NCBI GenBank assembly: GCA_965285935.1
Contig: OZ260667.1
Location: 26,226,001 to 26,290,000 of the forward strand
From: Ophelia neglecta
Lineage: Eukaryota
Reading direction: 5' to 3'
DNA: 64,000 bases
Of the stretch, positions 12,001 to 62,200 are shown piece by piece; position 1 is the stretch's first letter, and every line of letters begins with the position of its first letter. The translations under genes and the position numbers were made by a program. A model generated the notes under the pieces. It searched no databases. It was not told the DNA's origin and saw only the letters and a list, made by a program, of their open reading frames with translations.

Positions 12001-15000
12001 GGTTAGTTTGACAACAATTGATCTCCAGTTCCTCGTTTAAAGCTCAAGTGAAAATCGCCATCGTTTTGAATTATTCATTCAAACTCTGAGCAGATATCTG
12101 TGCTGAATAAGTGTATATTAGTTTGTTTTTTTTTTTGTTTTAGGTATGGCTTGCTTTCAGCCCAAGTCATCAGGCATGTATACTGTAACCGTGAAGCTGA
12201 ACGACAAACAAATCAGCGGAAGTCCCTTCAAAGTAGCTGTCGGTGACAGAGAGGTAACTTGGAATTTAATGATATAGTAAATATATATAATTATTTTTGC
12301 AGAAGGCGATTTAGATTAGTATCACATGCGAGCGAATTTGGCTGGCAAACCTTTCTGTTTAACCCGGCAAGCCCTCAATCTGCAAGCAATATTAGAAGCA
12401 AGAAGTTGTCTTTCGGCAAAACAATTAATATCCTTATACTATACAATTCATAAAGGGAAAGATAGGGCGGATAATAACTGTACACGGATGTATTTGCAGG
12501 TGTGCAAAGCCGATAAGGTCAAGCTGAGTGGAGTAGGCCTCAAGAATCCCACGTCCCAAAAATGGAACCCAATTGACGTAAATATTCAGGAAGCGGGTTT
12601 AGGTGCTCTGGCCGTATCTGTGGAAGGCCCCCACAGGTCCGACTTGGAGCAGAAACAAACCGGTCCAGGACAATTCGTCATCCAATTCAGACCCCATGAA
12701 CCCGGAGTATATATGATCAACGTTCGCTTTGGAGATGACCATTGCCACGGTAGGTGGTGCTATAATACTAACCTCGATTAAGTTATAAGTGGCTATAATT
12801 CGGAATCGATTTGATACCCGGAAGACAAACTAGAAACATCGATGAAGTATAATCAATCAAATTTTTCCTAATTAAATCGGGAACCTTAAGCTACAGACGA
12901 ACAAACATTAACTCCTAGTCCCCCACCTAAACAATAACAGCAGAATAACTCTATGCACTCGAAGAGTCTTTGATAAACTTTTCTCTCGCAATATGCAATA
13001 TTGTGCGACTGTTGATGGATTTATATCGCTAAGCCGTGATACCACAAGGAACTGGGTTGTATGCACTATATGTATAAAATTAACAGGTTTCAGGATTTTG
13101 CCATAAAACGAGTGCAACAAGATATTATTAGATTGTTCGGATGTTGACCTTGATTATCATTACACTTAGAAGGAAGTTTTTATTAGGAACACTGTACCAA
13201 ATCCTTATAATATGCGTGTATGTGATGTCACTCAGCTTCTGACTCTTGAGCGGGGGAGCTGTCCCGATGTGTCTAAAGGCAGTGCATTTTAATCTATTCT
13301 TCTTTTTATTGTGTGTTGTTTTTCTTTACTCTAGGAAGTCCATTCATGGTAAATGTTGGAGGAGAATCGTCCGGACGTGTCCGTGAGACGGTCACCAAGA
13401 CAATAGGATCCATCGAAGCGGCTGCTCCCGGCAGCAAGTGCGAATTCCAACTCGTAATCCCAGGTAGGTTCATTGTAAATATTTACGACTGCTCGCATTC
13501 AGAATTATGACAAGCAGAAGTTTTCTTCTTAAATTTGGTATTGAAGCCTATTGATGCAATATTGTTTGTTCATAATGTAAATTGTTTTCTCCAAATTATG
13601 TATACCAAATGTATTGGGTTTTATAAAATGTCAAATAGCCATGCTCCACCCTCAACGGAAATTCATTTTCTATTTGAATTTTGACATGTCTTTTCATTTA
13701 TATCTATTACACCATGATACGTATCGGCCATTAATTAAGGAATAATAAACACTTCATGGTAAACAAATATTGAGGTCTGTGATTTTGACGTTGCTAAATC
13801 CTGCTATCTTCAATAGGAACTGACCCTCTGGATATGGAAGCAGCCCTCACCTCCCCTAGCGGCAAAACGGAGCTTTGTGAGATCAGAGACTTGGCTGAGC
13901 ACCTTTACGACATCAAGTTTGTCCCAGAAGAAGAAGGTGTACATACCGTCAGTCTCAAATACAAGGGACTGCATATTTCTGGTATGATTTAATAAATGGA
14001 ATTGGAATGGACCTGGTTATGATGCATGCTAACATGCCCAAGTTTTTTTAATAACAACTTTTATGAACAAGATTGGCTGTCATTTGAAACATTTGGAAAA
14101 TATTCCACTTTAATATGTATAAACAATATCAATGAGCCAAAAATATAGTGATTTTCTGTGCCAAGTAGTCAAGGGCGTCAGATTTTCTTCATTATATCTT
14201 TGCTGTTTGTGAATGTTGATGTTGATTCTTGCCTCTGTATTTTCTGTTACTGCTAACGCAACTGACTTATAACTATGTGATTATAATGTGCAACTAACAA
14301 TGTTCACATTATTATTATAACATGAATTTCCAAAAATACTTTTGTTTACCGGGTTGTTTAGAAATACACATTTACCGTGTCAATGGTTGCAACAATATAA
14401 GTGGAGGTCTGGTCTCGAGACGAACGCCTGAAATGAACACGATGTTCCTTTCTTATAGTAAACTTGCAATGATAATTAGTGCGTTCCGAAAAGGAGAAAA
14501 TATTGCCGTAGGATTGATTCGTGTGTTTTTTATTTGATCTTCCAACGTTGTGTTAAATTGCAGGCATTCTTTTTCCATATACTGTCCTTTGGAAGTTAGA
14601 ATCCGACAAGCAAAGGCCTTAAACCGACTGCAACACAATATACAATGTTGCTAGTTGAGATCAAATCGAATGTTCATTGAATACAGCCCTTGTCATCCAA
14701 AAATACAACCTTGAGTGAATGCCCTTCTAGTTTCGACCTTGTTCGTCCCAGTGCACATTAGAGACTCTTACTTTTTAAAAACGGTGATGTGCATGCACTT
14801 CTCCAGAAACCAGTTTTTCAGTACGACTCCAATGGGTTTGCAACATTGGTCCGAACAGCATGCATATAATTGTCCAGTGTAGAGCTGGAAAGAGTCTGCT
14901 GCTTAACATCGTCTTCTTTTCCAAGTAAATATATTTATGTCACCCTCAAATAACAATCGAACAACCCTTGGCACCCTTCACACAGGGTAGGGCCTCTGAC

Positions 15001-18000
15001 CAAAATGTTGCAGAAGAAGTCTTATTTAGTTTGTGGTCTAGAGAAGATCTAGTGTCAGAATTGAATAGGTCCTTGCAAGTTGGGTAATGTGCACTCATCT
15101 TCATTGCAATGTGTCTGTTTGGCATTAGGTCAATTAGATATAGAATCTGTTTGTAGTAGTAAAACCATGCTATGAGAAATCAGATGGATGTCTTAGGTAA
15201 TTTCATTATCTACCTGTTATTAATTACAGAGTAGATACTTTTAAATCGCTTGAACAGATCTTAGCAAATCGATATTCTCGATCTTCTAACTTTTGCGGAT
15301 TAATAGAATATGGAGACTTATATTCTGGTAATGATTTATTTGGCTAAACCTGGTTGAGTAAGCGTCAGGATTTGATAAAGGTACGAAGCGTTCACCAACT
15401 GACACTGACTTAAATGAAAAATTGTTTCATTTAAAAATTAAATATACATTTTAATACATTATAAAGTAAGGGCGAAATAAGCACTTTCGCATTTTACACA
15501 TCGCCAAAACAATAATATGCCAATTGTTTGTGCTCAAAACTTAAAACACTCACCTGTAATGGTGTTTGATTGGCTTCCACTGTAGTCATGTGATTCCATG
15601 CACATTTTCTGATTGGTTGATATCATGGTTACAGGGAGCCCTTTCCAGTACACGGTCGGTGGAAGTCCATCAGGAGGCACTCACAAGGTCGAAATCGGTG
15701 GCATCGGTCTGGAGAAAGGAGAGGTCGGAATAAAGAGTAAGTGTGACAAAGTTGGTACAATCGCAATTTCATACATAATTGCAAAAGAATTTACTAGATC
15801 TATCTTAAATAAGATAGATTTCAATCATTAGCATTGAATATGATTTCAAATATGATTTTATTCTAGACATGTTTAACATCTACACACGCGAGGCGGGACC
15901 AGGTTCCTTGGCCGTTTCAGTTGAGGGACCATCCAAGGCAGTTTTAGATGTTCAGGACCGCGGCAACGGCTATACCACCGTCGGGTACAAAGTTACTGAA
16001 GCGGGTAAGTGTTGCAGACAACAAGGAACTCCGTTTATGTTCCGTTCAGCTCTCCAGACCGTGAATTGTCTACAAGAAATTATAAGAAGTAATCATATAT
16101 ATATATATGTGGCATATGATAGCAACATTGTTATCAAGTGCCCAAACCATGTGGTCACGTGTTTAAATAAACTAAAGCTGTACTGTTTTAAAGCTGTTTT
16201 TAAAGATTTGTTTTTGATTTTGTTTCAGGCGATTACGGTATTCACGTGAAGTATGATGATGCTCACGTCCCTGACTCCCCCCAAATGGTCTACATCACCC
16301 CCGAATCAGCTGACGCCAAGAAATGTTGCATCAGTGGATTCCGCGATAGGGGTTTGGAGGTAAAACTTGAATAATTACGGTTAAAGTTAAAACTTGAATA
16401 ATTACGGTTAAAGTTACAGATAATTTTCCCTATTTGTCCAGCCTCAACTGTAACAACGGACAAAATTATCTACATGGTTTTCTAAAGATCGAACAAACGA
16501 AACAAGTTGACAATTATGTATGCAACGATGATTATGCCTCAGTGGTATTATTTGATATTGTCATTGTTTTAACAGGTTGGAAAGATGGCCAACATGAACG
16601 TAGAGTTGAACGGCGCCAAAGGCGAGATAAAGGCCCATCTAGATACTCCGTCTAGCTCGGAGATTGATGTGTTTGTCCAGGAGTTGGATTCCGATCTCAC
16701 TAGGTAAATCATTATCGGTATAAGAACAAAACGCATTGCACTTGTACTTGGATTACGAAGCAGTTCAATGAATTTTTAGAATGAACCATGGGAAAAAATT
16801 GTATTATTAACAAGACGGAAAAATGAATAATAACAATATTAATATATTTATAATTGATTAAGAGTTTCAATAATAATTATTATGTGGTAATGTAAGCAAG
16901 GAATATGGTATATCTCGATACGCCCCATCGTTGGTCCTTGAAGGTTTTTTTTCTTTTATTTTATAGTTTGCGTTTCGTACCCAAGGAGAATGGAGTCTAT
17001 TACATGCACATCAAGCTGAAGGAGGCCCACATCCCGGGCAGCCCTTTCGCCATGCTGGTCGGCAAGATACACGCGGACGTCGCCTTGGTAACGGCTAAGG
17101 GAGATGGCTTGAGTACAGCAACATCTGGTGCGAAAAATGGCTGAGTTGATGTCTGAGTCTGATATAAGCTATTCTAACTGTTAAGAGAAAGAGAGAGCAC
17201 ACTCATTCGCAGAATTATTTCTCTGCCTTGCATTTATTTCAATACCCCGTTCAATATAAGCAACTTTTCAGAAGCAATGTTTTCCTATTTCACGGAGATA
17301 TTACAACATGATTCGAACACTTGTAATTTATAAATAACGGCACATTTTTTATATTGGGTGAATAAATGAATAATGTTCTATCGATGTGGAACCATTATTT
17401 ATTTTCTCAGGCTGAAGGACATAGGCAATAACATTATTTTTCAATTTGTAGGCAAATCTGCCAAGTTCACTGTGGTTACAACCAATTCTGGAGAAGGAAC
17501 GCTGTGTGTTAACTTTGAGGGACCTTCAAAGTGTGCCATCGTCTGCAACGAGGTAGATGAAGGCTATGAGTTCACTTGGACCCCAATGGCCCCAGGAGAA
17601 TACCTCATTAACATCAAATACAGCAACGTCACTATCGCTGGATGCCCAACCAAAGCAGTAGTGGATGGTAGGTCATATTTACATCAAAGATTTGTGAAGA
17701 AGGTACCTGTATACCTAACAATAGGATTGATAAAAGATTGAAAATACAATAGCAATGACAAATATAAAAAAACACTTCTTTCGTCCACCACGGATGTGCT
17801 GTATTCAATCTTTCGATTGTCCTTTGTGTCCATAGCTGGATTTATTTGAAGATACTCTCGGTGATCGAGTATATAAAAGGGTTTTTTCTTCTGTCTTCTT
17901 CTAGGTAAGGGTAAGCCTTCCCAGTTCCGTGAAACCTCTACTCTGGCGGTGGAGACTGTGGCCAAGAAACCTGGTGCCCCTCCTGCCAAGAAGTTCCTTG

Positions 18001-18530
18001 GAGACGCCTCCAAGGTCATTATTAAGGGTCCTGGTCTGAAGAGCTGCTTCGCTGGCCGCCCGGCCACATTCACTGTGGACGTAAAGGACGCCGGTAAGTC
18101 ATCAAATATGTCTTGGGAAAAGGTGGGCCAAGGAAAAAATCCGGGGTTATTTAAGAAACAGGAAAGTACGAAATAGCTTCGTTATCTAAGCATACATCCT
18201 TATATGAAACTGTTCAAACTACATGTACGTTGGAGCAGGGCCTGGTTCCATACACAGGTATACCGCATCCCCGATGATTCAATCTCGAGATGGCTCCATC
18301 ATACCAAATTAGACTAACCTTTCCACATTGTATTTCAAGGAAACGGTCTCCTGATGGTCGGTCTGATTGACCCGAAGGGTAATCCAGTAGACGAGTGCTC
18401 TTACAAAAAAATGAGAGGCACCTGCTACCAGTGCACATACAGAACTTCGGCCAAGGGTGAAAACCTGCTGACGGTACGATGGGGTAACGAGGATGTTCCC
18501 GGCAGTCCTTTCCACATTTTACTCAAGTAA
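5895..18530 (+). CDS. Short filamin-like protein (second half of Ig16 through Ig24 in FLNA numbering), 16 coding exons, about 825 aa
   Basis: Manually spliced exons 5895-6018, 7642-7755, 8123-8293, 11843-12001, 12144-12253, 12500-12749, 13335-13463, 13817-13981, 15635-15736, 15867-16004, 16229-16359, 16576-16703, 16967-17127, 17452-17667, 17905-18093, 18340-18530. All introns are GT-AG with compatible phases and sum to 2478 nt of open frame. Filamin motifs recur (AYGPGL, EGPSK, GSPF, EEPCLLK, TSPSGK, TREAG, RFVPKENGVY, TPMAPGEY, DASKV, VRWGNEDVPGSPF-end). Confidence 0.95.
6104..6385. repeat. Degenerate minisatellite, about 36-bp unit with palindromic CCATGGATCCATGG core
   Basis: Repeated atatatcaaacgactcagat...ccatggatcca units in the first filamin coding intron. 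Confidence 0.85.
7642..7755 (+). CDS. Filamin exon (TPFRCVVDSKGSGYITAYGPGL...)
   Basis: tttcag acceptor, G|gttagt donor, AYGPGL motif. Confidence 0.92.
8123..8293 (+). CDS. Filamin exon (Ig17-like: DGPSK...PGEYSVSIK...HGSPFSVKVS)
   Basis: aaacag acceptor, G|gtaagt donor, filamin motifs. Confidence 0.92.
9575..9753. mobile_element. Tc1/mariner (pogo/Tigger-like) MITE in a filamin intron
   Basis: Terminal inverted repeats CAGTGAAACCTGT ... ACAGGTTCCACTG (12 of 13 match), TA on both sides as target-site duplication, 179 bp, non-coding. Confidence 0.75.
10792..10842 (+). repeat. CT-rich tract upstream of the microexon acceptor
   Basis: Nearly pure pyrimidine (TC)n-like run. Confidence 0.8.
10875..10880 (+). 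CDS. Candidate 6-nt alternative microexon (CTGGAG) adding Ala-Gly
   Basis: Long CT-rich tract, then ttttcttcctctccag|CTGGAG|gtaagt. Phase 1-1 matches the flanking exons and preserves frame. Confidence 0.7.
11843..12001 (+). CDS. Filamin exon (Ig18-like N half: EGRKRSQVS...EEPCLLKKMPDGKL)
   Basis: gatag acceptor, G|gttagt donor. Confidence 0.93.
12144..12253 (+). CDS. Filamin exon (MACFQPKSSG...SGSPFKVAVGDRE)
   Basis: Poly-T tract plus tag acceptor, GAG|gtaact donor. Confidence 0.92.
12500..12749 (+). CDS. Filamin exon (Ig19-like)
   Basis: tttgcag acceptor, G|gtaggt donor; encodes EAGLGALAVSVEGPH...EPGVYMINVRFGDDH. Confidence 0.93.
13335..13463 (+). CDS. Filamin exon (Ig20-like N part: GRVRETVTK...GSKCEF)
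   Basis: ctctag acceptor, G|gtaggt donor. Confidence 0.92.
13817..13981 (+). CDS. Filamin exon (DMEAALTSPSGKTELCEI...GVHTVSLKYKGLHIS)
   Basis: caatag acceptor, G|gtatga donor. Absent from the ORF track but clearly filamin. Confidence 0.93.
15635..15736 (+). CDS. Filamin exon (SPFQYTVG...GGTHKVEIGGIGLEKGE)
   Basis: ttacag acceptor, A|gtaagt donor. Confidence 0.93.
15867..16004 (+). CDS. Filamin exon (Ig21-like: FNIYTREAGPGSLAVSVEGPSKA)
   Basis: ttctag acceptor, G|gtaagt donor. Confidence 0.94.
16229..16359 (+). CDS. Filamin exon (DYGIHVKYDDAHVPDSP...)
   Basis: tttcag acceptor, GAG|gtaaaa donor. Confidence 0.92.
16361..16415. repeat. Exact 27-bp tandem duplication at an intron start
   Basis: taaaacttgaataattacggttaaagt present twice. 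Confidence 0.9.
16576..16703 (+). CDS. Filamin exon (Ig22-like: LNGAKGEIKAHLDTPS)
   Basis: taacag acceptor, AG|gtaaat donor (phase 2). Confidence 0.92.
16967..17127 (+). CDS. Filamin exon (LRFVPKENGVYY...HIPGSPF)
   Basis: ttatag acceptor, G|gtgcga donor. Confidence 0.92.
17452..17667 (+). CDS. Filamin exon (Ig23-like: EGPSK...TPMAPGEYLINIKY)
   Basis: ttgtag acceptor, G|gtaggt donor. Confidence 0.93.
17905..18093 (+). CDS. Filamin exon (hinge-2 region and start of Ig24: ETSTLAVETV...GDASKVIIKGPGL)
   Basis: ttctag acceptor, G|gtaagt donor. Confidence 0.93.
18340..18530 (+). CDS. Filamin terminal coding exon (Ig24 dimerisation-type repeat, ...VRWGNEDVPGSPFHILLK*)
   Basis: actaac branch-point-like motif, tttcaag acceptor, TAA at 18528-18530. 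Confidence 0.92.
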
Positions 18531-30900: not shown

Positions 30901-33900
30901 AGCCAAATAGCATGACGTGGTTTCAGTGTTTAAATCCATCAGAAGAATGATAAATATGAGGTAATTTTATCGACTTTCGAAGCCATCACTGAAACACACC
31001 AATTTGTCTACATACAATTCAACCACCATTTTTCATTTGATTTGCCTCATTTTTAATGACAAGATTACCATTTGGAGATAATTAAGTAATTATTTGTAAC
31101 GTTATATCATGACCAACACTTGCTTCAATACCATTTGCGGCAGAAATCCAATTATATCACTCGTAGTCGAGCTGAGCAGGGGAGTCTCGAAATCTATCAA
31201 AGCAGGACCAATCACGATAACATATTGCTACACATAAAATCATCTTACTATTAAACAGCCATACCAATAAAACTATTTGAATTGACTGCCTTATTTTATA
31301 AGGCATGTTACTGCTCTTACTGTACGTCTACATAACATCACTTAAGTCAAATAGCACGTCTACCCTCTATGGCTGTATCGTTCCGGAACAGCAACAAACG
31401 CCGTTCAGACAGCTGGGTACATTCACAATGCTTCTCAACCCGAACGAAACCAAATAGGTATAATGTGGCACAATGAAGTGCTTTCGGGTGATGGCATATT
31501 AGCCTGGTAGCAATTAGTTGTCTTGTGTTCTGAGAGGGGCAGCGAGGGATAAGAGGGATGGGAAAGATAAATGGATTCCATTACCACTGACCACATTTGC
31601 CAATCCAGAGAACAATATAGAGATAAGGGCATGGCTTCATCGCTGCAGTTCCTTATGCGGCCGTAGCGTCATTAAACTGGTGTTTCCATTACGTTTTAGA
31701 GAAATCAACTATGATAAAAGCCTATAAAGCAGAAAAAGCCAGGACCAGTTTGTCCAAATATTTTACCCACACGAAATATGGTTACACAGGTCAATTTGCC
31801 AATATTGCGAAACCCAATAGCTTTCTTTTATCTACTACAATGAATGTGATCCATTAAATAGTGACAAACTTATGGGTATTATTCTATTATGTTTTCACAT
31901 GTATCGGCCAATTATAATACACTTCAATTTTTTGATATTGTCATTTTTAGGTGGTACAGAAACTACTATGTAATTTGTAAAATTGCGAGACGTTTTTCCA
32001 ATTTACTTTTGGTCCCTGGACAGTATCATATCTTGACTCCCGGGTTTATTCGGGTAGATAAAGGATAGATCAACTCACATCAAGAATAAAACTCAAACCC
32101 CTTTCTCATTTATATACTGAGTCTTGAATTAGATATCGGCCTGAAGGGCTGTTGAAGACGCGCATCATGACACTCGGCATTCTCCGCGAATATAACGGTA
32201 ATTTACGGTAGTCTCCGGCACTGGCTGTTCTAGGAAATTCACATAGAACTGCCAAAGGGTCGCATTCTGTGTTTTAAATGTGAATTGAGACTTTTCGATG
32301 CCAAAAGAAGTATACGTTAACAAAGCTGCATGCAGTTGTTATTTTTTCTATGCCTTAATAAAGTAAACAAGAAGTGGACATCCGGCAGACAAATCAAAAT
32401 CATTAGCCAGGAAAAGTCCATTAAATTGGTGCGAAAACACTAAGAACCAGGCGATTCAGGCTGTAACCAGCACTGTGATTGGCAGGTAATTCCGAAGCAA
32501 TATTCGACTGAACGGTCGATGACTAAAACCATAGTTTTACTTCAGATATGTAAACGAATAAGATAAAGCACAGGGTGTGGTAGCACGTAAATTTGTCCTG
32601 GGGATAGATAAAGAATGAGACTAGCAGGCACCTTTAATTTGAATATTGTATAATTAATCAAATTAAATTACAATTCCAGTCAATTCGCATATCTAAAATG
32701 TGCATTTATAACGTTAGCAGCTTCCTTTTTTGTATCCCTGGCCCTTTTTTAAAAATCGGATTTGACCTGGACAACAGTCAACGAACCTGACCAAATGGAC
32801 TAGTTTTGGCTACAGAATTCTAGGATCTTTTCTTATAGAATGACTATAAAATAAATAATTTCGCTCCATTTGAGGAGACATGAAGCGTATACAAACGTCC
32901 AGTTGGTCGGCTACTGGTTTCTACATACCGGTCAGATACAGCGAAAAACAAAGTTAAGCTAGTACTAGCCTCCGGCTGCTGATAAATGTTACATAAAAAT
33001 CAAATTCAAAGGTTTCGTTACCGTGTCATGTGGCAGTTTAGGGAGAAATCGCTATAGTGAATTAGGTGACAGTTGAGTAAGAAAAGCAATGATCGCCAGC
33101 AAATGATCAGATTGATCACCTTATCAGATTAATCTGACATGCTTGCAGGCAAAGTCTAACATATCAAGTAACTAGCACGAAGAATCCGAGCAGTCCATCT
33201 TACAGTTGTTCTAATATGATCAAACATATCAATACTTTGCTCCTGTCGAGCATACAACTTTGCGTGTCATGGATAAATCAGGGCAAGAAAGCATTAATAA
33301 TTTCTGCAAAATTATCAAAAAACTAATCAGAGGAAGGAATCTCATGGACACGAGGGAGAGAACCCCACTATGTTCAAAGAGTGGAAGTCATTAATCGATG
33401 AGGAAAACATTATGCCGATATAGATTTTTCTTGTCTAAGCTATCATCCGTTAAGCTTTTTGGTACTGTCCAGTGACTTAATTATCATGATGTTCAGGGTC
33501 CGTATATCCGTTCTTCCTGGTAACAGCACAATTGCATTATCAACCTAAAACAGACTCTAGGCGAATCTATACAAATGTAAATTGAAACTCAATAGAAGCA
33601 GACGGCAAGGCAATGCATTTCAACCCATGTTGTTCTCTTTGCAACAAAACAGGATTACCGGCGAAATTGTGGGAATGGATCAGTACCGTGGCAGATAAAC
33701 GTATCGATGTGCAACAAATCACTATGTTATTTACAGTACATGTAGAACTATAAGATACCACTGAGTCATATCACCGGAAACATCAACAGGTGAACGGGGA
33801 AACACAGTGAATCAGAAAAAGCGAAAAATTTAATTAATTTTCCACTAATTAATATCTATCCAGGTGGAAGGAATTCTGTGAAAAATGACATTCATTCAGT

Positions 33901-35903: not shown

Positions 35904-36100
35904 CAGGGGAACTCAGTGCCGGAGGACCAGTAAGAGAAGCCTTCTGGTTCTGGCATAATTCCTATTGAGTTGTTTTCTGGTTTGGACTGAGAGAGAACCC
36001 CGTCGAATGTCAAACTTAAAATAACAGCCGTGAAAACCAAAATAGGTGAAAATCGCATAAGATGTTGTAACAACATTGGGTATCCAACCAGGTTTTGCAT
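35904..36100 (-). CDS. Variable signal-peptide exon V1 (MQNL...ILVFTAVILSLTFDGVLS/Q...EPEGFSYWSSGTEFP-C)
   Basis: Hydrophobic signal peptide, shared EPxGFxYWxxGTxFP motif, phase-2 TG|gtaagt donor compatible with the exon at 25752. Confidence 0.8.
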
Positions 36101-37613: not shown

Positions 37614-37813
37614 CAAGGGAACGCTGTCCCGGCGACCCAGTAAGGAAAGCCTGTGGGTTCCGCAGGGAAACTCATCGAAGAATTATCTGTTGATGACATG
37701 GTTTGGGCGCCAACCGTGTTCATCGCTACTGATAATATATTGAAAACTGCAGCACAGGCGACAATGAAAAGCGGTTCAAACATCATTATATAATCTCGAA
37801 CCATTACTCTCAT
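37614..37813 (-). CDS. Variable signal-peptide exon V2 (MRVMVRD...VGA/Q...EPTGFPYWVAGTAFP-C)
   Basis: Same motif and same phase-2 TG|gtaagt donor as V1 and V3. Confidence 0.82.
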
Positions 37814-41300: not shown

Positions 41301-41688
41301 GCTTATTTCATACTTTCTCGAATATAATTTCTTGACCTTAATGAAGATGACAAGTCCTAAAGCAATAAAGACGGATACAAACTCGGACTGAGTTAAATTT
41401 TAGATCTGAATGAAGATATATTAGTTATATATTAATGAACGGCAAATTTGGTTTAATAGGATATGATTTCCATCAACTGAATCCGGGAAATTTGCAACAT
41501 TACCTAGAGATTATTTGTTCCGTATCGTTAATATACTCAAACAATGCTATTCACAAGTTTAGGGTGTATATAGTATGCTCTTTTTGTGAAGCACACTTTT
41601 GAAGCATTTGGCTGTTTTCCAAGCACTTCTTGCAATCTTGTGCTAGCTTGCTCATTGACTACTCAAGCACAACGAGGAGAACAGTAAT

Positions 41689-41866
41689 GGCCGTTTTCAG
41701 GTTAATACCGGAGGACAGTGTCCACGATCGATCTCATGGATAATTTGATCGTGCTCAACTTAGTTACCGCTGTCGAGTTAATATCGTCGGTAAACTTGGA
41801 TTGTCGGAACTACTCATTTTATCAGGGTTGCTTTATCGCACCCGGCAGAGCACAGAGTATCAATCT
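41689..41866. promoter_or_regulatory. Conserved non-coding element, copy 1 (about 3.9 kb upstream of V2)
   Basis: Gap-free 178-bp alignment to 56037-56214 with about 40 mismatches; no reading frame is open in both copies. Confidence 0.7.
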
Positions 41867-45400: not shown

Positions 45401-48400
45401 AATACGTAAACGGCAACATTCCATGGTATCTGGAGAGTAATGGCGAAGTTCATTATTAATAGTGACCCCCTTTTAATGTTTTGCATTTCATTCCTTTCCG
45501 GATACCACACACGTTGTCCTGTTCCTTCATTGGTTAGATATGCATGTAAACCCACCCGCTACCCGTTCTTAATCAGCCACAAATCCGTGTTACCACAATT
45601 TGACTAACATGATTGAATATCCAGACTTGCCATGTGATATTGCGTGTGAATGGCTAACAGGATCAGGTATCGGGCACTTTGTTCAGCTGTGGCGGAAATT
45701 ACGTATGAATCACATACTTGAAGTATTCGTAGTCAACACGCAGGAAACATTTAAAGGACAAGGTCTATAAATGAGAGTAGCTTCAGTTTATAGCATGGTA
45801 AAACCTGGGCCGTAATCCACACTATATCATCGGCAAACCAGCCAAATGTTGCTGTCCAAATACGTTGTTTTTAAGGGCTGCAGCAGACCCTCGGGTCAGA
45901 GGAATCTGACTTGTGATCAATGATATTGTTCTACCTGACGGGTGTATTTCTTCCCATTTTGGAGAGGACAAAACTGAAATTTTCCATGTTGATCACTTTG
46001 TCTGAACAACCCATCAAGGGATAAGTTCATGTTTGACGCACGCGGTTAACAAATGTTTCTCAACAGACAAACAAATCCATTATACAACAGTATATTTGAC
46101 TAGACAGCTTATCTTTCTCTTTCTCTTCTGCCCGATCGCTGGACATTCACTCTAACCCTTTATTCACAGATAACAAAAGATTGTCGAATGGCGGATTCAA
46201 TAGGAAAAAATTAATGGTACAGTGCGAATCTTATACCAGCTTTTGCTAACATACGTTTATTTCCATATCTTAGAAGAAAGCAAGTGAGAGCCACGACACC
46301 ACGAACATGTCCCCAGTGCGATGGATACACGGATATAAATTAAGAAAAGTGCATAATATGCTTTGTGTAGCAACAAGATTGCAGGCATTGGAGCAGGGTG
46401 CTTCCCAAGAACAACAATTTTGGACAAGAATGGCCAATTTCATCTGACTTCTAAGGTTGAAACGATCAGGAATCATAGCACTGCGATGACTTAACTCTTT
46501 TTCCTTCAACTTTAATGCCTGTTCTTTCAGCTCAGGTGTGAAAGGCTAGATGTCCTACGGGCAGACTCAGTGTCTATATGGACAATCTGTGCTTAAAAAA
46601 GTTGTGGATACGATGTCATATGACTCTTGAGCCTGGACTGACTGTCCGTAGGAAATTTACATCGTCCTCGCCACCTAGAATGATTTTTTTGCTTCTTATC
46701 AATTGGAGCTTAGATATCCGCAAAAGACAGTCGATTGGAACGGAAACTACAACGGAACGATCCCAGACGTATTACACTCGAACGATTACTGAGACATGCG
46801 TCCCATAGAATAAAGATATGATAAGAAGTGTTCGATGACCATTTCCCCCCGATCTTATTCAATGTGTCTTAGAAAAACAGATAATTTTGCTCAGTAACAG
46901 CAGTGACTGTGTTATGGAGATTCAAAGCCAAGTTTAACAACAGTTTCATTTAAACTTTGTCCTTTAACGGGTTCTAGATAACCGGTAGACAAACCAAACT
47001 GCTGATCAAGAAGAATCAATTAAATCGGTCCTAAAAGAGTTAATATATTTAGAAAACGATGATTCATTGTCAAACAACGTTTGACTGTCTCTCGCTGCAT
47101 AGCGCAATTGGTCGATATATTTAAAGGGTCGGACTTGATGTGTTGATCGGTAGTTACTCCAAGAAACTGAATCGACCTCTGGCAATGTGCATTTGACCTG
47201 CTACAATTAACCCGTCGAATGTGTCGAGAGTGTTTCATTGATGGGACGAACAAGTCATTGCATAATTATTATTCAAATTGTACCCCCCCCCCCCCCCCCC
47301 CCCGACCGTATAGGATATAATGATAATCTGGTCGAATATATGTGTGGCACAGTGTGAATAACAGAATAAAACTAGAACAAATGAGACCACCATGGACTGG
47401 ATAAACAGTCAGTTTATGGAGGTACTATTGCCGCTTAATATGAAAACGAAGGCAACCCAACACCTTTACTGATTAAGCAAAACTATTCTACTCTAAATTC
47501 CTAACAACAGTGAAATGGTGCAGTTGCATCTGACTGATTCCAAAGAGGCACGTGATATTGCGTGTGCTTCCAACGCCACGTTGAAAATATGACGTTGATT
47601 AATTATATGATCAGACGCTTTAGGTAAAATTGGACTAAACCGCTTTGTAGAAAGAATTTCAGTACCTCTTTGGAACAATCAGATCTTACGAAACGTCTCT
47701 ATTTTGATACCAAGCCAATTGAATTAACGTAGAAATTATTAGACGAAAGTATTGTTGTGGGACAGAGAGTCCCGGGAAGAGATACGGGAAATACGGATGA
47801 AATGCGTGCAAACATCGTACATTGCTTCTTGCAAATAATTACTACTTTCAAACTACTGAGTCCTTATAGGCCAGTTGGGAACACTGAACAAGGAACAATG
47901 GTATGATGTTAGTAATTAGTCTGATTTGAATCCAATCCTATTTTAGCTTTTTCTAATATGCGCCCGGGCGAACACTGGGGTTCCCGTGCAGTTAACATGA
48001 AGTGCCTGGCTTTACTGTTCACATCAATGCAGTCATGTGTATAAACTCCAAAAGGTAAATAAAAAAACATTTAGAATATAGAAAATGTTAGGGGTCGTAT
48101 CTGCTGGTTTTTTCGTATTACGCAAGATTTAAGGCGTAATACGTTGGAAAAGCATCGGAATAAAAGCCAAAGTCGAATATAATTAGATTGAATGAGTAAG
48201 TAAGAGCCTTTTTTGGGCAGCTTATATGTTATGGAATTGATTAAATAGCATTTTTTTATTTAGCGTTCGCCAATGCTTGATAAAATGTTGAGTTACTTTA
48301 AGGAAGAATTTGTCCCAAATGACTCATTTTTAGATACGGAACACTTAATAAGTTACCAGGTGACCGTTTCTGTTGATTATTAAACCACACCTCGCCCTGC

Positions 48401-51400
48401 TCATATCCCCAGGGTTTCTTATGTGCAGTGAGCTGACGCATAGTCGGGAAAGCTGTTACCATTAGTAACAATTCACCAGATGAAAAGGGCCCCTGAGTCG
48501 CTTACTCTATTTCTACTGAACTGAAAATGCAACGGTGGAGCAATCGTTTTAAACTGACGAAGGGCTGCAGACCGGATGGTTGAGCACGGGCCTTCATGAC
48601 ATCACCTTAGGGCAAATCCCTTGTCGCGAAAATTCAGACACGGGCAACTTCAGCATCATTTTTCACTTCCAGTTGCGTGCAGCTTTTCTGCCAGACTATT
48701 TCGTTAGAATACAGGTTCTTAAAAACCGGCGTTTTGAGCCTCATTTCAAATAAATTAACTCTGAAATAGTCAACAAAATTCTGTATGCTATATATGAAAT
48801 CAAAGGCGTTGGTTACGTGCTCGGGGCTGATTATTCGGTCAATTATGATGCTAAAATATTTCCAAGGAGCCAATAGATTGAGATGTTTCGTGCCAAAAAA
48901 TGCACTTTTCCAAACCTAGGAAAATTAAATTGCATCTAGCAGTGTATACAATACTTCATAAATCCGAATGACTACAGAAACAACGTCACGTCATTTATAT
49001 CATAGCTGAACAGTTATTACATTGTATTTTGTATTTTAAGTAAATGGTAATGGGATAACATGGGAATGCAATGAAAAGGTAAAATCTCTTTTACTAATCC
49101 TAATCCTCATTTCAAAGAAACGACAAGGTTGTGGTTTTAATTGATAAACTATTAATGATATCCATTAATTGTATCCTAAATTTCTTGGCCTTAAACATGA
49201 CACGGACAAGCAAGTTCGGGGTCATAGTAAAACTGCCCTCAAAGCAATAAGATAAGGTGTATGACAGGGGACTGCCCTTCACCGTTTATTCACAAGCGTA
49301 TTTCGTATAAAGCACCGATGATTGAGTGATTTGTAGAGAAAGGCTTTTTTTTCATTTTTACAAGTGAAAAGGGTGAAACCAAACAAATATACAAAACCAA
49401 ACTTAACTTACAGCTGCAACCTCGAATTGCATTGTCGTCTCATCTATGACATTAGATAAAAACCTGCCATCCTCCCAAACGTGTCTGTTTGAAGAAGCGT
49501 TACAGTGTTTGGAGTATATATTAACTAAATATTTATGTTGAGGTATCGATTAAGACGTTCGGGTATCATGAACGTGTTATTTACTTATATCTTTAGCTTG
49601 AAGATTTAAAAATGTCGGTAATCTCACACCTTTGTGGATTAACTTTTTAACACAAATGTTCACGCTGGGTGGTGTCTGTCACAGAAACAATCCATGTATC
49701 ACAATCGTCAATGTAAATTATATTAATCTCATTGTGGACACACACCTGATCTATTACTATGTTTTAGCTCGTGAAATACAACTGGGGCCTGAAAGTGAAA
49801 TTACAGGAAACAGGTTGCAATTTAGAAGACAACTATGATTGATACATTAAAAAACCATTCTTAGCTTTAAGTACACGTCATTCAGATGAAAGACAGCACT
49901 AAAATTAGGATGGAGGACAGCCTTCTCTACCCACCAACTGAAAGATGACAGATCACATGCATACTGTTCTTGACCCAGACTTGCATTGAGCCAGCTCATA
50001 CACAGTAAGAGCAAAAAAGGCCGGCGTATAACTGAAGTTCGGCTACTTGACCTTTCAGGAACGCCAACAGACTAATTAGTATGCCCAGCTTTATCCTCTA
50101 ACTCTTACCAATTCATAGTTTTGGTGCTCTTTCGAAAGACCAATGTAATTTCTGTCCAAAATGGTAATTGATTGGCTGACTGATTTCAGCGGGTAAGCTT
50201 GTTTCTTCAAATATTTTCATGATGAATGCGCAAATAATTGTCTACACATCTTACCGCTTATTCCGCTAAGCAAAATGTTTGTTGCTCTCATTGTACTCAA
50301 AATATTGTTCTTTAGTTGCATAGAGCTTTGCTATGAAGCTTACAAGAGGTCACGATAGTTCAGTAACAGAATACCGAGGTACAGAAACAAAGCTTGAACC
50401 TAATGTGCCAAGCATCGTGTCGACAAAATGTTCGATCAAATTTCATATTTGCTTTGTTGCCGGTGTGGTATTATTATGAAAATCTTTCTCATAATACCGA
50501 ATCGGAGTTGAACTCAAAGAATATATATGATTTATAACTTATCCACTTCCTGCTGCTGGCCTGCTGATTGAGACACCACCTATCATGCGTGTTTACCTCG
50601 ATGACTGTCCTCCTAGTGGTTGCAGCCAAACAAGTCTGTTTGATAATAAGTGGCTGTCAAGGATTTAAGGTCGATTGATGAAGGGTACATTGATCCCAAC
50701 AAAAAATGGCTAATGCTTCAGAGCACACAAAAACATCTACCAACCACAAGCAGACTACCGAACTGATTGCTCAATCGAAAGAGGAGTAGGAGGTTTTTCA
50801 ATGTATCCCTTACTGCCTCAAAGGGTCATTGGTGTAATTCAACTCAAGAATTTTTTCTCAAAGCAAAGAAATCATGATACTTATTTAAATGTATTTGGCT
50901 TGATTTATTAATTCAAACAATAATCTTTTTGCTTCTTTCATGAGCAATTGCTATTAGACCAAACAGCATCCATTTTAAGACTAAAGTGTCTGTGGTTTGG
51001 AAGATGATCGTTTGCTGTATAGTATAAACATATTATAACTGGTGCACTTAAATAGATATAAGGTTATTCATTAAGGTCACCACCTTAATAGAATGATGAA
51101 TTAAGAGTGTTTATATTGTCAGCAGGTAAATTTAGAATCCACAAATACTAGGATAAGGTTGGTGTGTGAATGTGCCATGAAACGCAGTAGTCAGTGAATA
51201 ATATTGACTTAGGGTGATGGCTGACTGAGGGCCAAAACAATTCCTGAGGCAAAAACCTGAGGCCAAAACAATTCGATAATGCTATGTACTGACCAACAAC
51301 TTTCCTGTCAGAACAAGTAGTATCTGTAGGTTGAACCCTGTGAAGGGATAGGTTTGTACATAGTACGGTTATTTCGTCTTGTAGTGTTGAGGAATACCGG

Positions 51401-52041: not shown

Positions 52042-52232
52042 CAAGGGAATGCTGTACCAGCGACCCAGTAAGGAAAGCCTGCTGGCTCGGCCTGAAATCC
52101 CATCGACGAGTTCTCCGAAGGTGACATCGACTGTCCGTCCACTGCGGTTATGGTAAACGACAGAACCTTAAATACGACGGCCGAGGCGACTATAAGCAAC
52201 GGTTTAAACATCCGTGCATATTTCTGAAGCAT
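52042..52232 (-). CDS. Variable signal-peptide exon V3 (MLQKYARMF...VDG/Q...EPAGFPYWVAGTAFP-C)
   Basis: 38 of 63 aa identical to V2 without gaps. The terminal 12-aa motif differs from V2 only at synonymous sites. TG|gtaagt donor. Confidence 0.82.
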
Positions 52233-53699: not shown

Positions 53700-54360
53700 C
53701 ACACACGATGAACGGAGACCACCAGTGTCTTGGATAGACATTAAACATGACATAATGACCGGAAGATACGGAAGTCCCTGGACAGGCAGACCCATGACAT
53801 AATGCAAAGACGCTGGAGAGAAAAACTCGTGACATAATGAACGGACGGAATGAAAGACTTGGAGACACATAAACATGACATAGTGAACGGCTCATACAAT
53901 AGTCTCTGGACAGACATAAATTTAAGATAATGAATAGAAAATACGAAAGTTGCTGGACGGACATAATCATTACATAACAAACGAAGAATACGAAAAGCCT
54001 GGAGAGACAGAAGGCTGATATAATGAACGGATAATACGAAAGTCCCTGGACAGATATAAACATAAGAAAATGAATGGAAAATACGAACGTCCTCGGATGG
54101 ACATAAACATGACACAACAAACGAAGAATACGAAAGGCCTGGAGAGACATTAGAATGACATAATGAACGGCTAATACCAAAGTCCCTGGACAGAAATGTC
54201 CATGACACAATGAACGGGGGATAGGAAAGTCACTGAACAGGGATGACATACTAAACGGGGATACGAAAGTCGCCGGATAGACATGAACTTGACAACAAGA
54301 ACGAAGGAAACAAATGTCCTGAGTACCCATAAAGGGATAAAACGAACGGAGGATACGACA
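53700..54360. repeat. Degenerate tandem repeat, about 40-47-bp unit (atgacataatgaacgg..aatacgaaagtccctggacagacataaac)
   Basis: More than ten diverged copies; explains the overlapping 248-aa and 155-aa ORFs. Confidence 0.88.
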
Positions 54361-55396: not shown

Positions 55397-56036
55397 TTTT
55401 AACACATTAAACTCCACCCGAACTATATTTGCTCTATAATTCCCCTTTCTTAAATCATCAGAGAGATCAAGTACATTTTGGGTTTGACAGTGGATTCGTC
55501 ATTGAACACATCTGTCCACGTTTAAATATTTCAAAGCTGTCTCTCCAATAAGCAATTGTTCTTTGATAAAAATAAAACATGTTCATTCCATTGACACAAG
55601 AATGAATTCGATTGGCCTTGACAAAGAAAAGGTTCTTTCGAACAAGGTCAAATAAATGCCGAGAGATGTTCTACTGATAACCCCTCCCAGTCGGACGTCT
55701 TGGCGGACCACAGAGGAAGCAGACAATCTGAGATAAGCTGCAGATTAAAGGCCGGGAGCATGAACCAGAAACAAATAGAGCCAAAGATAAACCACCGACC
55801 AAAAGGGGTGGTATGGATCTAAACAAAATGAAAGGAAATCAATTCCTCGAACAAAAACACTTCGGGGATGTCATACACGTCAGAGGTTTTATCCGAAAAC
55901 AAAATACGAAGAAAAAATTTCAAAGGCTTCTGAATGTTTATAATCAATTTCAAACATTTTCCATTAAACAATCCTTTCAATTTAATCATCATTCCGGTAT
56001 GTTCGTTTGTCATACATTACAGGGTGGTCCACTACT

Positions 56037-56214
56037 GGCTGTTATCACATTAATGCTGGAAGCCAGTGTTCTAGATCAATCTCTAGGATAATTTGATCGA
56101 GGTTAACATAGTTACAGCTGTGCAGATAATTGTGTCGGTAAACCTTTATTGTCGGAACTGGGCATTTTATCACAGATGCTCCATCGGAACCTGCAGAGCA
56201 CAGAGGATCAATCT
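56037..56214. promoter_or_regulatory. Conserved non-coding element, copy 2 (about 3.8 kb upstream of V3)
   Basis: Paralog of 41689-41866. Its offset of 14348 bp nearly equals the V2-V3 offset of 14428 bp. Confidence 0.7.
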
Positions 56215-59200: not shown

Positions 59201-62200
59201 GGGCTTAACTTTAGAAATGGACAGTTTGCTAAATACACGATTGATCTGTTGTGCAAAATAAACTCAACTACATTTTTTTGTGGAACGAGTCACCAAATTT
59301 CTGGTAATAAAAATGAGACAGATAATGGCAGAGTTAATAAAATGTACCCTTGTATCACATATTGCTGATAAAAAAATCTTAGGTCTTCCACAGCTATAGA
59401 AGTTATATCATGCAGAGTATAATTATACAAAAAAGAGATTAGTGAAAAAAAGTTGCATTTGTTTCAAATTAACCAAGTATACCGTAATAATTATTTTCGC
59501 ATGCGCAAAAATCTCGCGCAGAAACGTCAGAAGCACTTGCATTTGAAATCTGAATTGGAAAGTTTCAATCGATTTTCCTTTTAATTAAAAAAATTGAAAT
59601 TTAATAAATCGATTTTTTGTCGATCTCTTTAAACCACATATAACATAGGACTAGCTTGTTTTGTGGAAAAAGGGCATTTTCCAAATTCACAGATCAATAT
59701 TCAACCAATTCATCCAAGCTAACACACGCCTCGGGGACTTGAGGAAACCTTTAAAGGATTCCCTTAGGCTCAAGGGGAGTCAATATAAGATCGATGAATC
59801 TCTTTTGTACTATTCATGTTAAGGTCCTAGTTGCCATTGTTTTAACACGTAAGGAGTCAAAGACTTCAATAGCTTTGCGTGATATGTTCCGATCATCCCA
59901 AGACGTCATGTACATCTGCTTCATACTGATATAACATCATATGTTCCAGATGCACGTGTTCTGTCTCAATAAAGCGTGACTAGCTCACTTTACAAAGTTT
60001 AAATTAATGCACTATCGGGGAAATTTAATGCCAAAATTTCACGAAAATGGCCAAAAAAAGTTGCCAAAGTTGAAATTATGTCCAGTCTTTAGACATTTTA
60101 GGACATTGTGCTACGGGGTTATCTCTGTAGGTCCCCAAATACGCATGTAAAATGTTCTCAGCAACGTAATTCTGTTTAAAAATTGGTATCGTATGTTTTT
60201 CAAAATGACTGTAATCATAAGCGTAAGTTTGATTTTCAGCACTTGAAATCTCATATTAATATGCTGCATTGTTTTTAATGTTCGTAGTAAAAACCAAAAT
60301 GTGGGGATCTTTAATTAAGCACTTTTACCTACTTAAAATTCGTTTTAATAATTTCTTGGTCAAAAGAGCCTTTGCCGAGTCCAGAAAGTTGCAAAATATT
60401 TCTATGTTTCCATTAAGCATATAGTTCACTAGAAATATAGTTCACTGTGCGAAATTGTCAATTTTTCATTTAGAGACACAGGCCTATATGCTTGTTTTTA
60501 CATTGTTCATGAGCTATTCGAACGAAATGTGACTTTGATTATGCTGTGCATCGCCTTAGGCGTCATTTAAAAAAGTCAAATGTTCTTTTATTGAACCAGG
60601 CCAAAGCGACGGATTTATCAACAAGCTGGGGGCAGGTCCTAGCAGCGGCCTTATATATCAAAACAAACTCTTGCCGCAAGAATACATGCGTGCCCAGTCG
60701 GAAGAGATTATTTTGATCATACACTGATGAAGAATTAACAACAATCGGAATTCGTTGTGCACAATATATTCAATATTTAGCAATTGGTGGACTGCTAACA
60801 AAATATGCTCTTTGGTAAACTGACTGTCGTTATCTACAACACGCAAATGTGTCGTTTATAGAATAATTTATAACACTGATTCTAATGAGCACATGGCATG
60901 TATACATCAAGATTCTAACAAACACAATCAGTTCATCAAATATTATACGATTCACTTCTAAAGGCGAAAATCTACATCCAAGTATATGTCCTTGCTTAGC
61001 TTTTCGTAAACAAGAATTAACTACAATCAATACAATTGATATTGGGAATTTAATGGCAGTTTAAAGTAGAATATAATTACCCTTAAATCGAGAATTAGCG
61101 AAGGTTGAAGGGAGATTTCAGATAAATATTACTTGATGCCATGATAGATTTCGAGTTTACTTGGAAAGCTGATGGTCAGTGGAATGTGAAAAACAGTACT
61201 AGTAGTAAGAGCAGAACGACGTCTTCCGGCAAAAGGTCATCATAACGACCAGTGAGATTTTTCGTGTCAGCAGCCAATCAGTAGGGCCTTTGATTGCCCT
61301 GCCACCATTCTAGAAACCCCGCTGAACTATGTGGCATTAAGATCTCATTGATTGACACATCAAATTTATCTGTAGATAAGCGAGAAGAATGCTGACAATT
61401 TATGACCTGCGCCCAAATCGCATTATAATATATGAATCATGATGTTCGCGAGTTGTTTGCATTGGCTTTCATTGGTTTGATAGCCATTTTCTTTCTAAAC
61501 GTAATAACTTATAAAGCTGAAAAAGGTCGAAAAATTGAAGTCGATCTGAGAGAGGCTTAGGATCAAATCCGAACCAAACCATTGCCAAAGAGTAGAAAAC
61601 AGGAATATGAAAAAGTGCATTTAAACAAGTGAGATCCCTTCATAGGAGCCGGCTGGTATATCTGATTGACTAGAAAGGTGAAACAAGCCTCACGGAAGTG
61701 GAAAGCAAATGTAACACTCTCAAAAATAAAATCACGCTTAGCATGAGAAAATTCATACGTAAAGTTAATGTGAATTAAAGTATCATGTAATCGACTGCGG
61801 TTCGTAATGACACCAGCCTATCCTCTTCCCAAAATCAAGCTAAAGACGCCATAACGTTGGGATGAACACCGCGGGAGTTAGTCGGTTCGTATTGAATGTT
61901 ATCAGGTATGTGCTCAAGGTTACGGAATCGATCTCTGGTGACGATACATTCAGCTTAACACAGTTATCTACGTCGGTAAAATAGTAATAGGTATCTCTGA
62001 TAGCCGAAGTCAGTCATTTCATTAAACTAACTCAAACCAGAAACTTTCCAGTAAAAGGTCATCGATTTCCATAGGCATCATGAAATCCTAACCAATGACG
62101 GAAACTACTGAATCAAGTTCACATTTTGTTAAGATATTAATGACATTTACTTAGGCGTGCATAGGGCAGATTGGGGCAAAATGTGACTCTAGGCAATACG

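Follow-up and report, generated by a model that had tools for sequence, protein, structure and literature searches.

Two copies of a 185-bp non-coding element, E1 and E2, lie in the 64,000-nucleotide stretch of Ophelia neglecta DNA analysed here (the window), and we read them, with a probability of about 0.6, as distal enhancers that would serve two alternative first exons of a TMEM145/GPR180-type gene. In this reading E1 would belong to promoter-like block P2 and exon V2, E2 to P3 and V3, a CUT/ONECUT-class factor with partners would act at both, and two further blocks, F1 and F2, would be older and looser sister modules. F1 and F2 (at 47.1 and 61.9 kb) and the four promoter-like blocks P1, P1b, P2 and P3 are new here. 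The features are collected in Table 1.

Table 1. Features of the locus, in window coordinates (E values refer to the amount of DNA searched, where given)
Feature	Position	Strand	Description
C2	24903-25467	-	last constant exon; PF21892 TMEM145_N, E 2.5e-22; hydrophobic tail, no seven-helix part
C1	25612-25752	-	constant exon, phase 2-2; hmmsearch E 4e-13 with homologue N-termini
V1	35904-36100	-	alternative first coding exon; hydrophobic, signal-peptide-like N-terminus; phase-2 donor
P1	36560-36700	-	predicted promoter-like block upstream of V1; retrieved with the P2/P3 profile at E 0.027 (214 kb)
V2	37614-37813	-	alternative first coding exon; phase-2 donor
P2	38172-38340	-	predicted promoter-like block upstream of V2; ATCGAT, Inr-like TCACT
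E1	41682-41866	.	first copy of the conserved non-coding element; Inr-like site of P2 ~3.46 kb downstream
F1	47126-47277	.	gapped partner of F2 in the duplication (offset 14758); E 0.021 in 814 kb
P1b	50556-50705	-	second copy of P1 at offset 14018; query P1 finds it at E 1.5e-4 in 814 kb
V3	52042-52232	-	alternative first coding exon; phase-2 donor
P3	52664-52835	-	predicted promoter-like block upstream of V3; ATTGAT, TATAAG, Inr-like TCACT
E2	56030-56214	.	second copy of the conserved non-coding element; Inr-like site of P3 ~3.32 kb downstream
F2 (E3)	61884-62068	.	candidate distant E paralogue; nhmmer 13.0 bits, E 0.025 in 814 kb

The sequence-only reading had reported that 41689-41866 and 56037-56214 align without indels at about 78% identity, and a direct count agrees (138 of 178 positions identical, 40 mismatches, no gaps). 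The alignment grows to 185 bp at 77.3% identity, still without a gap (BLAST E 6e-35). Every invariant block quoted for the pair was found in the sequence, and the flanks are unalignable as described: 1-kb flanks of E1 and E2 score in the shuffle range both on the left (30.5 against 31.3 ± 3.2) and on the right (33.5 against 28.7 ± 3.1, shuffle maximum 36). These invariant blocks are not more clustered than 42 randomly placed mismatches would leave them (p 0.28-0.41), and the invariant columns have neither a 3-bp nor a 10.5-bp periodicity (p 0.96 and 0.73, respectively). One contig covering E1 carries 7 differences in 1877 bp and none within the element, where about 0.7 would be expected, so that the comparison has no power. 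Contigs assembled from three sequencing runs of one sample contain no skip joint at E1.

E is non-coding. All six reading frames are stopped in both copies over the 185 bp, which goes further than the earlier claim that each frame has stops in at least one copy, and pS is close to pN in each of the six frames. Mismatches between E1 and E2 fall on the three codon phases as 17/13/12, compared with 14/4/1 in the V2/V3 core, and the columns invariant among E1, E2 and F2 are divided 16/15/14. Translated searches with E returned nothing beyond its own two copies, and a Pfam search with the open frame of E2 gave no match over the cut-off. A short minus-strand peptide in E that recalls the serine-rich part of the V exons was rejected, the serine codon families being different.

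The two copies belong to a larger, old duplication. The near-equality of the E offset (14348) and the V2/V3 offset (14428) had been pointed out from the sequence, and the collinear offsets of P1/P1b (14018), P2/P3 (14492) and F1/F2 (14758) extend it, so that the proposal of an old tandem duplication of ~14.4 kb is upheld by collinear blocks together with a pS of 0.74 between V2 and V3. The duplication spans at least 36.5-47.3 kb against 50.5-62.0 kb, and the duplicated unit includes promoter-like blocks as well as E and V. In a banded scan E scored 186, V 142, F 54.5 and P1 46.5, with a control maximum of 48 among 1200 scores, and P2/P3 fell below threshold; P1 and P1b are 62-70% identical with gaps. 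Because these five pairs lie in the same order at similar offsets, E and V would appear to have been duplicated in one event. A further 60-bp block (32377-32437 against 46977-47036, offset 14600, score 51 relative to the same control maximum of 48) hints that the duplication extends further or had an earlier round, and no F-like module follows it.

This shared history provides a yardstick for the element. E is likely to be under purifying selection, because the synonymous sites of V2 and V3 are saturated (pS 0.74, with four-fold sites identical in 10 of 20) while E differs at only 42 of 185 positions (23%); comparing E with these two measures gives p 7e-10 (Fisher) and 0.007. That E is conserved beyond the neutral sites of V2/V3 holds if the two were duplicated together, which the five collinear offsets support. 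No other non-coding block of the duplication is kept as well as E (F1/F2 are ~53% alike with five gaps, P1/P1b 62-70% with gaps), and the earlier suggestion of a non-coding element under constraint is supported both by this contrast and by the lack of codon bias. An additional argument for saturation, from transitions and transversions, was dropped, since the transition share of E (14 of 42) was matched by 20% of 89 control pieces.

Whether E is a dispersed high-copy repeat was addressed by a genome-wide search. DNA searches with either copy matched two places in 762 Mb, and so did a pattern search of the same 762 Mb with a 21-base pattern of E allowing up to two mismatches; both counts are lower bounds. 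A match to the pattern in a metagenome, on a contig of 63% GC with only ~29 bp matched, was judged to be chance. A MITE or other DNA transposon was rejected as well: the best end-to-end inverted match is 5-7 bp and is not shared by the copies, there is no terminal inverted repeat, and there are two copies. Profile scans covered 814 kb, made up of 214 kb around the locus and 60 control stretches. The E profile found nothing above 10.8 bits in 600 kb of sampled control DNA, and no E-like element above 10.8 bits occurs within 200 kb around three other TMEM145_N loci. TMEM145_N loci elsewhere in the genome lie at C5:34.13 Mb, C5:56.71 Mb and C7:13.88 Mb; one is an open frame with two tandem domains, one matches a single domain, and one is spliced and has the domain in several exons.

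Besides the two close copies there are two distant candidate paralogues in the locus, F1 and F2. In the 814 kb, F2 scored 13.0 bits with nhmmer and the next match 10.8. It has a 105-bp gap-free core with 52% identity to E1 and to E2 each, and a gapless scan over these 105 columns gave 26.2 bits at best against 13.7 for the next. F1 was located with F2 as query; it retains the first ATCGA core and is ~53% alike to F2 with five gaps. A profile of F1 and F2 has E1 as its best outside match (E 0.32). We regard F1 and F2 tentatively as older paralogues of E; the matches are individually weak, and the assignment draws partly on position and orientation.

The V exons appear to have promoters of their own. 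P1, P2 and P3 lie ~0.45-0.57 kb upstream of the starts of V1-V3, and we infer that the P blocks are core promoters, although their mutual homology is weak. A search with P3 retrieves P2 (E 0.027 in 214 kb, a score equalled in 3 of 290 real-sequence controls), the P2/P3 homology drops to a weak E of 0.09-0.16 in 814 kb, and the P2/P3 profile retrieves P1 at the position expected. The blocks align on an ATCGA/ATTGA core with an initiator-like CAC ~40-47 nt downstream, and P3 has TATAAG ~30 nt before TCACT; the TATA and Inr labels follow what we take to be the consensus. No recognisable signal-peptide exon lies below P1b. In that place, where a duplicate of V1 would be expected (50292-50108, minus strand), a phase-2 GTAAGA donor occurs at ~50108 with only two codons between ATG and donor; this could be an isoform exon without a signal peptide, or a decayed exon.

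One motif recurs in the promoter-like and the distal blocks alike. ATCRAT occurs in E1 at 41727 and 41859 and in E2 at 56075 and 56207; E1, E2 and F2 have two sites each, 132-134 bp apart (132 in E1 and E2), against a background of 0.23 per 189 bp. P1-P3 have one site each, F1 and P1b retain ATCGA, and the ATCRA core, of CUT/ONECUT type, is thus common to all eight blocks (E1, E2, F1, F2, P1, P1b, P2 and P3). The only degenerate 6-mers common to E1, E2, F2 and P1-P3 are six overlapping GATCRA/ATCRAT words; the motif was picked after the fact and is present in 16% of random 160-bp blocks. In C. elegans, the CUT-factor site that was mutated in pan-neuronal genes reads ATCGAT, as given in the part of that study drawn on here (10.1101/2021.12.10.472091). 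Of the factor classes proposed from the sequence, CUT-class sites are supported. Fox sites are poorly supported, the full RTAAAYA being present in none of the copies, and so are Sox sites, for which there is only the 5-mer ACAAT in E1 and E2, missing from F2. WGATAR occurs once in E1 and three times each in E2 and F2 (background 0.53), and a palindromic YAAC-NNN-GTTA is retained in all three.

Taken together, E is best read as a distal enhancer because promoters apparently already stand beside the V exons. E1 and E2 would each act on the promoter-like block ~3.3-3.5 kb away that fronts V2 or V3. A CUT/ONECUT-class factor would bind both ATCRAT sites of E, which are separated by 132 bp, as well as the one site of each P block, with GATA-type sites as its partners. 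In some cell type, E would increase initiation from the promoter next to it. The target of E1 is assigned from position only, since E1 also lies within the predicted intron of V3. Invariant islands, with mismatches clustered between them, are expected of many enhancers, and we count the unclustered mismatches of E1 and E2 against the enhancer reading.

The sequence-only reading had also called the element spacing-constrained, and the support for this is weak. A gap-free pair is uncommon here: of 92 pieces that span 185 columns and are 72-82% identical, three have no gap, E being one of them, and the mean is 4.6 gaps. The 105-bp core is gap-free to F2 as well, with the second CUT site moved by 2 bp in F2, and F1 is gapped. 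Against the claim, the mismatches show no clustering, and 22 of 117 alignments within a dispersed repeat family of ~185 bp are likewise gap-free, 77% pairs included. We take rigid spacing in E to be no more than suggested. The family itself is abundant and MITE-like (for example at L051:1724-1908, L076:9540-9725 and many control loci), and its copies are often gap-free at 72-82%.

Several other explanations were weighed against the distal enhancer. It is unlikely, in our estimation, that E is instead an upstream promoter with a non-coding leader exon spliced to the V exon ~3.8 kb downstream. Some details would suit such an arrangement: E1 and E2 share, column for column, a minus-strand GT (GTAACT, at 41767) and an ATG in an AAAATG context, a similar pyrimidine tract and AG come right before the ATG of V2 and of V3, and several upstream ATGs in the 5′ region of P2 hint at a 5′-UTR intron. 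The donors are weak, however (GCG|GTAACT and GCT|GTAACT), and missing in F2, and by eye E has no TATA/Inr arrangement of the kind seen in P3. Gap-free alignment rarely survives synonymous saturation in non-coding leaders, which we also count against this reading, and a leader is less needed because a promoter-like block lies nearer to each V exon. A similarly low probability goes to E as a neutral relic, that is, a later small local copy, a gene-conversion tract or a fragment of a low-copy mobile element that has had less time to diverge than V2/V3. The uniform mismatches would fit this, as would a transition share within the control range and the dispersed family that yields gap-free 77% pairs of the same length. 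Yet the order, orientation and ~14.4-kb offset of E match those of four other duplicated blocks, the older paralogues F1 and F2 retain the same motif columns, just 2 of 91 other control pieces are gap-free, and E has neither terminal repeats nor dispersed copies.

We see only a slim chance that E acts as RNA, either as a structured non-coding RNA or as a selector in an intron that would govern first-exon choice by pairing with a docking site. The position of E1 within the predicted V3 intron is compatible with a selector, and in a 9-bp hairpin on the plus strand 23 of 27 cells are paired, with three two-sided changes among E1, E2 and F2. This hairpin was chosen after folding, though, is equalled by 36 of 500 shuffles and amounts to two inverted ATCRA sites. 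The consensus fold is no better than column shuffles on the plus strand (-19.0 against -18.8 ± 4.2) or the minus strand (-12.6 against -15.5 ± 3.2), the three-way fold has z of about -1.3, and Rfam gave no hit at the gathering score in the window (three weak ones lie near but outside E). The structured RNA offered as an alternative from the sequence thus finds neither a conserved fold nor an Rfam family over E. As to docking, the best shared ungapped pairing, in the V1-C1 intron, is inside the range of 20 control stretches (23 against 20-28, and 24 against 20-30). An Sm-site or SL-RNA reading was discarded, the site being missing from F2 and buried in the hairpin. Least probable is that part of E (41830-41768, minus strand) is a short coding cassette exon of 63 nt and phase 2-2, inserted between V and C1. 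AG and GT do fall in the same columns of both copies with an open frame between them, but the variable positions of E are not third codon positions, the acceptors are purine-rich (AAG, GAG), conservation runs well past these sites and none of 13 aligned homologue N-termini indicates such an insert.

The gene that E would serve lies on the minus strand. V1-V3 start with hydrophobic, signal-peptide-like sequence and end in phase-2 GTAAGT donors with which the phase-2 acceptor of C1 is compatible in every case, and the predicted V-C1 junction resembles a Capitella protein; V1-V3 would be spliced to C1-C2, which both phases and homologues fit. The PF21892 TMEM145_N domain is 51% identical over the matched stretch to Capitella teleta ELU03865.1, and the one homologue cluster with a name among ten looked up is a Capitella teleta protein. 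The predicted product would be a GOLD-domain-only relative of TMEM145/GPR180 whose hydrophobic tail is predicted to be a GPI or single-helix anchor, and C1 as a query brought up no homologues of greater length. TMEM145 and GPR180 are described as GOST proteins, and TMEM145 as required in mice for hair-cell link structures, in the portion of the literature consulted (PMC12789471; on GOST proteins also PMC11605061). Unlike those proteins, the host product has a GOLD domain only, between a signal-peptide-like start and the hydrophobic tail, with no seven-helix part. Differences among the V exons are confined to the signal peptide and ~30 further residues, so that the main effect of duplicating them would be more expression patterns, and not new protein specificity. 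Literature searches found no publications on TMEM145 in annelids and, at listing level, none on this locus or element.

Among known systems, E is closest to duplicated conserved non-coding elements, or paralogous enhancers, which are non-coding, of low copy number, retained beside paralogous coding sequence and conserved far beyond synonymous sites. E is likewise non-coding, low in copy number and better conserved than the synonymous sites of V2/V3. The usual paralogous enhancers are shared between whole paralogous genes, whereas E was copied by local tandem duplication inside one gene with alternative first exons. It is likely, on this comparison, that E is a known kind of element (a duplicated conserved enhancer) in a mildly unusual gene. 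The high conservation and unchanged spacing of E1 and E2, and the 105-bp gap-free core shared with F2, are reminiscent of the IFNB1 enhanceosome as outlined in PMC8051032; in contrast to the system outlined there, 23% of the bases of E vary without clustering, F1 tolerates small gaps, and gap-free pairs are not unique to E in this genome.

Clustered protocadherin genes offer a second parallel. Each variable-exon promoter there has a ~22-bp CSE bound by CTCF, with the distal enhancers HS5-1 and HS7 in addition, and SSE-CSE activity depends on spacing, according to the sections of PMC3333863 used here. At the sequence level the locus resembles the arrangement given in that source in its tandem first exons with their own promoter-like blocks, in same-phase donors to constant exons and in one motif common to promoter blocks and distal elements. 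It differs in having only three intact V exons that encode little past the signal peptide, in a motif that is CUT-like rather than CTCF-like as judged by shared 6-mers, and in a distal element duplicated along with the exons in place of one shared enhancer beyond the constant region. The selectors of chelicerate sDscam, as far as PMC9258826 was drawn on, also go with alternative promoters, variable 5′ cassettes and conserved sequences that recur in introns; E departs from them in having no docking complement above controls, a length of ~185 bp and a position upstream of the co-duplicated exon.

A more speculative and improbable version would make the locus a miniature, CTCF-independent case of protocadherin-like promoter choice, in which P1, P2, P1b and P3 would be paired one-to-one with the related distal modules E1, F1, E2 and F2, all of them sharing a CUT/ONECUT site. 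The rigid 185-bp E would be a platform of fixed geometry that picks the first exon of a cell-surface GOLD-domain protein in each cell, possibly a sensory neuron. If such one-to-one pairing of modules and promoters were true, the locus would be a compact model of promoter specificity in duplicated enhancers. Enhancers of non-model invertebrates are hard to find without the genomes of relatives. Here a duplication inside the locus takes the place of such a comparison and points to a testable 185-bp candidate, its likely promoters and a candidate class of factor, and E would offer a first handle on a GOLD-domain-only TMEM145 relative.

Some smaller observations concern the surroundings. Just outside the window, at the equivalent of positions 70261-70209 on the minus strand, a short V-like exon (profile E 0.1 in 214 kb) has an ATG and a phase-2 GTAAGT donor, lacks a signal peptide and carries an in-frame TAG at the tryptophan of V1-V3; it is probably a decayed fourth V exon. 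A weak match of 9.6 bits to the middle of the V profile at 40018-39976 (minus strand) is a possible V remnant. Contigs of two sequencing runs have an in-frame 3-bp deletion at 37732, in the signal-peptide region of V2. The last exons of a filamin gene (PF00630 homologues) occupy ~12300-18530 on the plus strand, and the gene ends near 18.5 kb, tail-to-tail with the TMEM145-like gene. A repeat of very high depth lies near 44.05-44.1 kb with more repeat DNA up to 45.3 kb, and a degenerate tandem array lies at 53700-54360 between V3 and E2.
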